Part shown: in pieces, positions 49,131 through 50,392 of the stretch
Numbering within the stretch: the stretch's first letter is position 1
How the letters are laid out: each line of letters starts with the position of its first letter
NCBI GenBank assembly: GCA_022184915.1
Contig: JAGTJU010000004.1
Coordinates: forward strand, 416,057-480,056
DNA: 64,000 bases
Direction: 5' to 3'
Source: Myxococcales bacterium
Lineage (GTDB): Bacteria; Myxococcota_A; Polyangia; Fen-1088
Notes under the pieces: model-generated
Database searches by the model: none
What the model was told of the DNA's origin: nothing
What the model saw: the letters and a program-made list of their open reading frames with translations, nothing else
Position numbers and translations under genes: made by a program

Positions 49131-49502
49131 TTAGCGTCGGTGCGGATCTTGTGTGGGGTATACGTCGTCTTCTGTTCCAACCACGCCATCCGGCCCTCGT
49201 GAGAAGGCAATGATTTGCCCGTCTCCATCGGGACAGAGGATGAGATAGTGATTCCGCCACGGGTCTAGGTGGGTCGGGAGAAGGTACTTTTTGGAGATCA
49301 AGATCGCCACGTCCTGCGGGCAGACCTTCTCGTCGAGGCGATACCAGCCAGCGGCGCTTTCAACGATTGAAGCACCCAGACGGGCCTTGTTGATCTTTGA
49401 AGTCAAGCTGTCATCAAAGCGACCAAGACCCCGGGCGAGCAAGAATGCGCACGTTGCCAGAATCCCGAGAAGAACGAAAAGGGCCCATGTCTTCCGCCCC
49501 AT
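49131..49502 (-). CDS. GspG-like pseudopilin-domain protein lacking the prepilin GFTLIE motif (low-GC)
   Basis: Start at the ATG preceded by an AGGTGG Shine-Dalgarno. N-terminal TM WALFVLLGILATCAFLL. C-terminal LPTHLDPWRNHYLILCPDGDGQIIAFSRGPDGVVG resembles the T2SS major pseudopilin DPWGNPY region. Confidence 0.5.
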   Translation of the reverse strand: MGRKTWALFVLLGILATCAFLLARGLGRFDDSLTSKINKARLGASIVESAAGWYRLDEKVCPQDVAILISKKYLLPTHLDPWRNHYLILCPDGDGQIIAFSRGPDGVVGTEDDVYPTQDPHRR

Positions 49503-49510
49503 CCTGCCAC

Positions 49511-50284
49511 CTAGAGGATACAATTGAACCCTGCAAGATCCTTACATAGGGCACGATACGGATCGGTGAAACGCTTCACTCGTGTGAACTGATCGGGAAT
49601 CGAATTTTCCAGAATGACGCGATCACAGAATTCCTTAAGCTTACCAGCGATGGGTGTTTTTGTTTCCACCTGCCGTTGTCCAAATAGACCCTTGTTCTGG
49701 TATCCGAATACGCGCTTACCCATTTCCCGGTCGTAGGTCTTTGGTATAGCCCGAAGCATATCCCAGAACACGAGCCCGGGCGGCTTTCCGTCCTTCGGCT
49801 TTCGCATAGAAGCTATAGCGAGATCCTCTGTAGTAGACCAGAAGACAGACGCGCGATGCCCAACATATTCCCCAAGCGCCTCGTGGACGATCCTTTCGGC
49901 GTCGTTGGCAGTTGTGTTGTCCGCGAGCCTTGCTGTTCGATAATGGTTTTCGCCAATGCGCAAGATCGCTTTGACTGCGGGAGCCGACTTCTTCAGGGAG
50001 ATGTAGGCGTGAGTTGCCTCATGGTAGATGGTTTGGATGCCGATGCCCTCCCCCTTTGGAAGGTTCGGAGACATGTCCTTTATGGATTCCAGAGTCTCGT
50101 CACTTAGACTCAACCTTCCTCGAAACGGCGGGAAGAGCGGTTGGAACATGTCACTGCCGTCTTTTCCACTCGCGGATAGAACTGTGTGCGCCTGAACTGC
50201 TTCCAGGAACAACGTTGGCAGCCCGTAGTTCTTTGCGGTACGGATAAACTTGCTCAACGAAAAGTCGCTTCTGAACAAGGCCAT
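49511..50284 (-). CDS. hypothetical HExxH-motif protein (putative zinc metallopeptidase; low-GC)
   Basis: 257 aa. TIYHEATHAY contains HEATH. A second HEALGEYVGH follows. Region GC is far below the genome average. Lies 8 nt upstream of the GspG-like gene. Confidence 0.4.
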   Translation of the reverse strand: MALFRSDFSLSKFIRTAKNYGLPTLFLEAVQAHTVLSASGKDGSDMFQPLFPPFRGRLSLSDETLESIKDMSPNLPKGEGIGIQTIYHEATHAYISLKKSAPAVKAILRIGENHYRTARLADNTTANDAERIVHEALGEYVGHRASVFWSTTEDLAIASMRKPKDGKPPGLVFWDMLRAIPKTYDREMGKRVFGYQNKGLFGQRQVETKTPIAGKLKEFCDRVILENSIPDQFTRVKRFTDPYRALCKDLAGFNCIL

Positions 50285-50392
50285 GGTGGTGCTCCAGAGT
50301 CGGTCCGAGCTTCTTCCCGACAGGGTTGAGGTAGACTAACGCACGCTTTCTTACAATGCCTGCCCGAAGAGTGTCTATCGCGGCGGTTTGCA

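Follow-up and report, generated by a model that had tools for sequence, protein, structure and literature searches.

What does a compact pair of genes, set in the most AT-rich part of a myxobacterial sequence and bordered on one side by a mobile element, encode? The question is raised by a 64,000-nucleotide stretch of a Myxococcales bacterium assembly (GenBank GCA_022184915.1, contig JAGTJU010000004.1, forward-strand positions 416,057 to 480,056), hereafter the window. An earlier note, made from the letters alone, had singled out a HExxH protein followed by a GspG-like pseudopilin without a prepilin motif, and had suggested that the two make up a module of recent arrival, either of toxin/immunity type or associated with secretion. 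We found two intact minus-strand open reading frames (ORFs), gene A followed by gene B, whose products of 257 and 123 amino acids and whose 8-nt separation, from the stop codon of A (49511-49513) to the ATG of B (49502), agree with that description. An alternative start for B is a TTG at 49523 (ORF 49131..49523). Given the sequence relationships set out below, the description that suits the cassette best is that of a metallopeptidase effector family, new and unnamed, with a putative periplasmic immunity partner of pseudopilin fold, which in this genome forms an orphan of recent insertion. We consider it likely that the two genes make up an effector-immunity cassette like those of polymorphic toxins, standing alone as an orphan or cargo-type unit, in which an envelope-acting metallopeptidase toxin would be paired with a periplasmic immunity protein.

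Protein A has no match in Pfam (E ≤ 1) or among NCBIfam, PHROGs and PADLOC models. A word-indexed search recovered 10 relatives, and a full HMMER profile search covering 1.84 billion cluster representatives returned 383 proteins at E ≤ 1e-3, 156 of them at E ≤ 1e-30. On this basis A falls into a family that has no name and counts at least 383 clusters at 50% identity, with members in Myxococcota, Acidobacteriota, Pseudomonadota and other groups. The toxin domain of A and the immunity family of B are both absent from the named Tox- and Imm- families of Pfam, and literature searches of incomplete coverage turned up no name for the family of A. When 52 diverse stand-alone members are aligned, P23, E89, H92, E135 and L225 are invariant, and Y87, H88, A93, Y115, A136, Y140, R144, Y184, G194, Y195, D221, E226 and F233 are conserved in at least 90% of sequences. 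Both motifs that had drawn attention to this protein are present and the first, HEATH (residues 88-92), is conserved, but the second, HEALGEYVGH, is no further HExxH: H134 varies among homologues whereas E135 is invariant. A second HExxH-type metal site at HEALGEYVGH is ruled out by this variation at H134.

An AlphaFold2 (AF2) model of A, built from a 10-sequence alignment (pLDDT 90.4, pTM 0.90), comprises an N-terminal beta/alpha subdomain, a helix at residues 80-97 that bears the HExxH and a long helix at residues 129-160 that bears E135. The protein carries no export signal, and in the model its N terminus belongs to the fold. An HExxH on the active-site helix combined with a glutamate on a downstream helix defines the gluzincins, and the modelled arrangement fits that layout; the earlier concern that the spacing or context of the motif might suit no metallopeptidase fold did not materialize. 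A would accordingly be a zinc metallopeptidase of a new gluzincin-type family in which H88, H92 and E135 bind zinc and E89 acts as the catalytic base. Searching the PDB with the A model in Foldseek gave nothing significant, and the sole match of the 52-sequence profile to PDB sequences was the HExxH helix of Spartan (E 0.67). Since matches to solved structures were this weak, we read A as a predicted zincin-like domain whose overall fold appears to be largely new and which has no named family.

The clearest indication of what A might do comes from the company it keeps in other genomes. Scans of genomes and metagenomes yielded 38 distinct loci carrying A homologues. At four of these (L012, L013, L014 and L033), a very large RHS/TcdB-type ORF with RHS_repeat and TcdB_toxin_mid matches ends in an A domain at its extreme C terminus. 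The canonical RHS core end ('...YRFTGKE.D...GL.Y...RYY.P..GRW.S.DP.G....NLYAYV......DPxGL') is present in all four; the A domain starts 10-20 residues after the final DPxGL in L013 and L033, and about 70-140 residues after the core-end DPxG in L012 and L014. The position after the RHS core end is the defining site of the variable C-terminal domain of a polymorphic toxin, and members of the A family occupy it. Long family members point in the same direction: among 54 representatives exceeding 300 amino acids, 21 contain eCIS_core/DUF4157, and others contain an OmpA peptidoglycan-binding domain (two), a calpain domain (one) or a VWD domain (one). Geller et al. (2021, PMC8213781) treat DUF4157 as a core marker of extracellular contractile injection systems (eCIS) that is fused or adjacent to toxins. 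Two A members have the architecture DUF4157-OmpA(peptidoglycan-binding)-A, a weak hint at a substrate near peptidoglycan. Lastly, in a Pseudomonadota metagenome-assembled genome (L011), a free A homologue of 252 amino acids comes immediately after tssF, tssG and clpV, close to vgrG, with a B homologue alongside, a placement resembling that of a type VI secretion system (T6SS) cargo effector. Together, these RHS/Tc tips, DUF4157 fusions and T6SS placement look like the marks of a polymorphic toxin domain, and since related bacteria carry A in these settings, A would be injected. The window copy is free-standing: it consists wholly of the A domain, with in-frame stops upstream and no N-terminal trafficking domain, which makes it the orphan or cargo form.

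Gene B is a recurrent companion of A. B-type ORFs were located with a hidden Markov model from six partner ORFs, plus one further locus. They lie immediately downstream of the A homologue and on the same strand at 14 of the 38 loci (the window, L002, L003, L010, L011, L014, L017, L018, L027, L033, L035, L036, L039 and L040), which corresponds to about 13 of 29 lineages once near-identical loci are collapsed. Two RHS/Tc fusions (L014 and L033) and the T6SS locus L011 are among them, and at L002, L010, L017, L018, L027, L033, L039 and L040 the B-type start overlaps the A stop in an ATGA. These loci thus hold the small, co-oriented, conserved downstream gene that is looked for in an immunity gene, and the partner is not universal. 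Five of the B-type partners exceed the Pfam T2SSG cutoff. A prepilin leader is missing from all partners, and in its place stands a signal peptide, a lipobox (such as GMAGC, GMASC or LLPGC) or a transmembrane (TM) helix, with a hydrophobic anchor helix in the window and L014. The residues invariant among 13 B partners are those of the GspG calcium loop, namely D80 of DPWG, G103, D105, T110, D112 and D113 (DPW...GxDG..GTxDD). Pairwise identities of A and B rise and fall together (r 0.82 over 14 pairs; r 0.69 when one near-duplicate pair is removed; Mantel p about 1e-4). Mean identity is 27% for B and 33% for A, and the closest pair, the window and L003, shares 32% in B and 62% in A. Compared in this way, B diverges faster than A, as is usual for immunity proteins. 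Along with the RHS/Tc tips, the DUF4157 fusions and the T6SS locus, this recurrent follower supports the toxin/immunity half of the original proposal.

When we looked for an alternative partner at loci lacking B, we found only synteny groups and a small multi-TM ORF common to L001 (2616-2939, minus strand) and L004 (171-497, minus strand), where it is divergently transcribed beside A. At L013, a 184-aa multi-TM ORF (1607-2161, plus strand) overlaps the RHS stop codon in place of B. Multi-TM ORFs of this kind may be alternative immunity proteins. Downstream of B at L003, the locus of the closest relative (61% identity in A), lies a third gene (1127-1666, plus strand) that encodes a 179-aa protein with an FtsH-like HEAGH and precomputed Peptidase_M41/M50B matches; the window has no equivalent.

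B itself presents a familiar fold in an unfamiliar form. It matches Pfam T2SSG (PF08334) at E 5.8e-6 with 26.8 bits against a cutoff of 21, and Foldseek aligned its AF2 model (pLDDT 89) with probability 1.0 to structures of enterohaemorrhagic Escherichia coli GspG, Vibrio EpsG, PulG and XcpT (3g20, 4lw9, 3gn9, 5o2y and 1t92) at 26-32% identity. The suspected likeness to GspG-like pseudopilins therefore survives both profile and fold searches. Equally well founded was the remark that the prepilin peptidase site is missing: the N terminus of B reads MGRKTWALFVLLGILATCAFLLARG, without G-F-T-L-I-E, and N_methyl (PF07963) gave no match at E ≤ 1. Against the TIGR01710 GspG equivalog, B scores 27.4 bits, far under the cutoff of 88.85. 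Its neighbours are IS66 and IS3 insertion sequences, a helicase pseudogene and AbiEi genes, with no gsp genes among them, and at related loci B adjoins A, not gsp genes. B is no part of a type II secretion system (T2SS). NCBI, using a shorter 91-aa gene call, labels B 'type II secretion system protein GspG'; given the absent leader, the score below the TIGR01710 cutoff and the lack of gsp neighbours, this name is functionally misleading.

A single-sequence search with B recovered only B itself, and the profile of 13 B partners retrieved 27 proteins in which true GspGs (E about 1e-12) are mixed with leaderless forms. A wider group of GspG-domain proteins that lack the leader, bear lipoprotein or TM signals and occur in settings unconnected with A includes P0174, P0176 and P0178 (198-aa lipoproteins) and L041-L047. 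Some of these A-unrelated proteins bear an extra N-terminal domain, and automatic annotation tends to call them GspG. Literature searches of incomplete coverage found no immunity protein described as T2SSG, PF08334, GspG-like or pilin-like.

The absence of an export signal in A, combined with the export or anchoring of B, is the signature of envelope-acting injected effectors. In the mechanism we favour, A would be made without a signal peptide and be harmless in the producer's cytoplasm. T6SS, RHS/Tc or eCIS machinery would inject it into neighbouring cells, where it would cleave a periplasmic or cell-wall-associated substrate. B, in essence the globular domain of GspG minus the prepilin leader, would be exported or anchored by its TM helix, signal peptide or lipobox, wait in the producer's periplasm and neutralize A delivered by siblings by binding it.

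Four observations weigh against this account. Roughly half the A lineages are without a B-type gene next to A, and in several there is no obvious small neighbour of any kind. GspG-domain proteins that lack a leader turn up in unrelated settings too, unlinked to A (P0167, P0171, P0177, P0180 and P0184), so that the fold alone implies no immunity role; a general GspG-fold immunity family is ruled out by these five proteins. In P0026, P0031, P0041 and L020 (3596-5005), the A domain lies N-terminal to DUF4157, which is atypical for a terminal toxin domain and suggests either that several toxins share one polypeptide or that A does more than serve as a terminal toxin. Finally, no T6SS, eCIS, VgrG, PAAR or RHS gene was found among the scanned ORFs of the window. 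As a separate observation, one of the proteins in which A precedes DUF4157 has a calpain-type protease further downstream.

A more specific version of the mechanism would make B a domesticated copy of the target of A. A would then attack GspG-type pseudopilins or type IV filament subunits in the prey periplasm, disabling secretion, pili or motility, and B would serve as a leaderless GspG decoy or pseudosubstrate. This idea draws on the fact that B, at 26-32% identity, has kept both the fold of GspG and its calcium loop. It gains no support over simple fold re-use from the results here, and we judge it quite improbable.

Other accounts of the pair accept the same observations and explain them differently. 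Were B a genuine, divergent pseudopilin or pilin-like subunit of a T2SS or type IV filament, and A an accessory peptidase processing B or its substrates, then the cassette would be secretion-associated, and the GspG fold, the identity to solved GspGs, the retained calcium-loop residues, the NCBI label and the retrieval of true GspGs by the partner profile would all be expected. We hold this to be the least probable of the alternatives, since B has neither the prepilin cleavage/methylation motif nor an N_methyl match and falls well short of the GspG equivalog, the Sec signal peptides and lipoboxes of its partners are incompatible with prepilin-peptidase processing and filament assembly, no T2SS gene lies nearby in the window or at the related loci examined, and A is a domain found at RHS C termini. 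The neighbourhood invites a different thought, that the pair is an intracellular toxin-antitoxin or abortive-infection module directed against phages and part of the surrounding defence island. That island does hold two AbiEi genes, a PDC-S41 helicase with a pseudogene copy and several insertion sequences, and the two-gene layout is tightly coupled. Such a role is nonetheless very unlikely: neither A nor B has a PADLOC or PHROG match, a scan of viral contigs found no relative, B and its homologues carry export or anchor signals that A lacks and would thus be placed in a separate compartment, and the RHS, DUF4157 and T6SS associations indicate exported toxins.

The remaining alternatives concern the target of A and its fate in this genome. 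A might be an anti-eukaryotic toxin of eCIS or Tc type, acting on protists, nematodes or insects, with B being no immunity protein and instead an unrelated envelope protein, chaperone or activator. DUF4157 fusions are the commonest long architecture of the family, the TcdB-type BC fusions L014 and L033 carry A, about half of the A lineages lack B, and many eCIS toxins are without an immunity gene (PMC8213781). We nevertheless think this unlikely for the window pair, as B-type genes stand behind those same Tc/RHS fusions and behind free A genes, the L011 pair sits in a T6SS cluster, and the close co-divergence of A and B, like their ATGA coupling, is in keeping with a cognate pair. It is possible that the anti-eukaryotic account holds for part of the A family, and by analogy with VgrG2b, which acts on both kingdoms (PMC6899460), it need not exclude an immunity role for B. 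Doubtful, with an appreciable minority chance of being right, is the suggestion that the cassette is a silent relic here, an orphan module from mobile DNA that is no longer expressed or deliverable. The surrounding insertion sequences and decaying pseudogene favour this, as do the lack of delivery genes in the window and of a consensus sigma-70 promoter or terminator in a scan around the cassette. Set against these points, both ORFs are intact and keep all invariant family residues, and a GGAG Shine-Dalgarno sequence lies ~7-10 nt ahead of the ATG of A. Consensus promoter scans are uninformative in high-GC myxobacteria, and, with a source contig of 806 kb, delivery genes may sit outside the window. 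Whether the cassette is a relic bears on its activity in this host, not on the nature of the module; an effector-immunity cassette is the reading we carry forward.

How the cassette reached this genome is recorded in its composition and its borders. GC content falls to 0.522 between 49501 and 50000, the lowest of 128 consecutive 500-nt bins, which upholds the earlier claim that this is the most AT-rich part of the window. The cassette averages 53.7% GC against 65.2% for the window (minimum z about -3.3 at three bin sizes), and GC at third codon positions is 0.60 in A and 0.64 in B, compared with 0.7-0.9 in most host genes. 'Very low GC' is apt only in a relative sense, yet the cassette is the extreme of the window. 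A homologues fall below the GC of their host locus at nearly all loci examined (L001-L039), typically by 2-12 points (for example, 0.52 versus 0.63 and 0.43 versus 0.55), consistent with a horizontally circulating cassette. Because low GC is a family trait in nearly all hosts, it points to no particular low-GC donor, and the hint of such a donor in the earlier note was not borne out. A phage origin of the cassette is unsupported, as no relative turned up in viral contigs; yet L001 and L004 have integrase- and primase-type neighbours.

The cassette lies within a mobile and defence island that starts past housekeeping genes at about 34 kb (Table 1). On one side is an IS66-family element split by a nested IS3 element, and on the other is a decayed second copy of the PDC-S41/DUF2075-type helicase. 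The pseudogene matches the intact helicase by blastn at 92.7% identity over 1010 nt; by tblastn it is broken across three reading frames and lacks residues 1-227 and 574-673. It belongs to a segmental duplication made up of the pairs 38915-39924/50395-51402 (92.7%), 40238-40335/51414-51510 and 43147-43940/51590-52384 (96.7%). The duplicated unit (38216-40344 with 43147-43940, and 50395-51519 with 51590-52384) appears from its gene content to be a defence module combining a PDC-S41/DUF2075-type helicase with an AbiEi antitoxin-like gene. Homology to the intact copy ends 110 nt upstream of the start of A, and the cassette with its spacer exactly fills the gap from this breakpoint to the IS66 end. 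This position, between the terminal repeat of IS66 and the breakpoint of a truncated paralogous pseudogene, supports the claim of recent acquisition.

Table 1. Coordinates of the A-B cassette and of neighbouring features in the window
Feature	Coordinates	Strand	Description
DDE_3 transposase	36294-37406		Island
PDC-S41/DUF2075-type helicase	38216-40309		Intact; PADLOC PDC-S41 4e-161
AbiEi gene	43215-43871		Island
IS66-family element	44024..48476	-	25-nt terminal inverted repeats (88% complementary); Pfam matches within the span: DDE_Tnp_IS66, TnpB_IS66, rve, HTH_Tnp_1
IS66 tnpC	44177-45901
IS66 tnpB	45930-46295
Nested IS3 element	46535-48087		Splits IS66 between tnpA and tnpB
IS3 orfB	46535-47611
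IS3 orfA	47608-48087
IS66 tnpA	48104-48412
Spacer, B to IS66 end	48477..49130		Unassigned; 654 bp, GC 0.61; contains the convergent ORF 48509-49213(+)
Gene B	49131..49502	-	123 aa from ATG; GspG-fold protein with N-terminal TM/signal-anchor helix replacing the prepilin leader; putative periplasm-facing immunity protein
Gene A	49511..50284	-	257 aa, ATG start; stand-alone zincin-like (HExxH...E) putative toxin/effector, without signal peptide or N-terminal delivery domain
Leader/promoter region upstream of A	50285..50394	-	Runs to breakpoint with truncated helicase pseudogene; placed from sequence and from paralogue homology beginning at 50395
Helicase pseudogene (second PDC-S41/DUF2075 copy)	50395..51519	+	5'-truncated, frameshifted, internally deleted
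AbiEi gene	51658-52314		Island

Several further features of the island deserve mention. The first copy of the duplication holds 2.8 kb with three unannotated ORFs (40584-43254) between the helicase and AbiEi, and no AbiEii partner was identified. Convergent with B and overlapping its 3' end is an unannotated plus-strand ORF (48509-49213), protein-like over its N-terminal ~150 amino acids and arginine-rich in its C-terminal part, with no match in Pfam, PADLOC or PHROGs. Beyond the second AbiEi gene, positions 52935-54556 encode a 390-aa protein with PG_binding_1 and an unknown C-terminal domain, followed with a 4-nt overlap by a 150-aa ORF that has no Pfam match. GC dips to 0.58 there, and the two genes could be a second cell-wall-directed effector/immunity pair. 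ARAGORN called a 93-nt tRNA-Asn on the minus strand at 46209-46301, inside the ORF of IS66 tnpB; to judge from how long it is and where it lies, the call looks spurious.

If our account of the cassette is correct, it adds an unnamed and fairly large metallopeptidase toxin-domain family common to three delivery platforms (RHS/Tc, eCIS/DUF4157 and T6SS), together with an immunity family built on the type II secretion pseudopilin fold. The A domain could then join effector-prediction catalogues, and the periplasmic substrate of a new protease toxin would be a potential pointer to a vulnerable envelope process. Should B prove to be a decoy of the target, injected effectors would gain a new class of antibacterial target, and the pair would clearly illustrate how immunity can evolve through target mimicry. 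On the practical side, B-type genes that are automatically annotated as 'GspG' can make T2SS components look more numerous in soil bacteria than they are. No conceptual change is implied, as cassettes of effector and immunity genes and orphan modules are already established, and so are metallopeptidase effectors that act in the periplasm.

Comparison with known systems places each protein beside a well-studied relative or analogue. B shares with GspG, PulG and EpsG the globular fold and the DPWG and GxDGxxGTxDD calcium-loop motifs; it differs from them in having no prepilin leader, conserved E5 or N-methylation domain, in its Sec, lipoprotein or TM-anchor route of export and in its location outside a T2SS operon. 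The anthrax lethal factor/ATLF-like (M34) and M13 gluzincins also count among the closest known systems. As in RHS/Tc C-terminal toxins, the A domain follows the core end, precedes a small co-oriented gene, is lower in GC than its host and is mobile, whereas the window copy of A stands free and has neither an RHS core nor a remnant of one upstream. The eCIS-associated toxins (PMC8213781; Danov et al. 2024, PMC11297309) offer a further parallel through the DUF4157 that accompanies A in 21 of the 54 long members. The window copy differs from them in having no DUF4157 and no eCIS gene nearby, and the A domain is not among the toxins named in those parts of the two accounts that the comparison covered.

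The comparison that reaches furthest is with VgrG2b of the Pseudomonas aeruginosa H2-T6SS, whose C-terminal metallopeptidase shows toxicity in the periplasm alone and depends for it on the HExxH motif (Wood et al. 2019, PMC6899460). That domain is known in two forms, evolved (fused) effector and cargo effector, and immunity proteins of the PA0261 family reach the periplasm by a signal peptide, a lipobox or a TM helix (PMC6899460). The C-terminal domain of VgrG2b is a DUF4157 domain and A is not: A has no Pfam match, and the two stand side by side as separate domains in many proteins. The possibility that A is a divergent DUF4157 (PF13699) is ruled out by the missing Pfam match at E ≤ 1 and by a likeness limited to the motif, with hhalign of A against DUF4157 segments aligning 10 columns around the HExxH at 6.9% probability. 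VgrG2b and PA0261 are the closest functional precedent for A and B.

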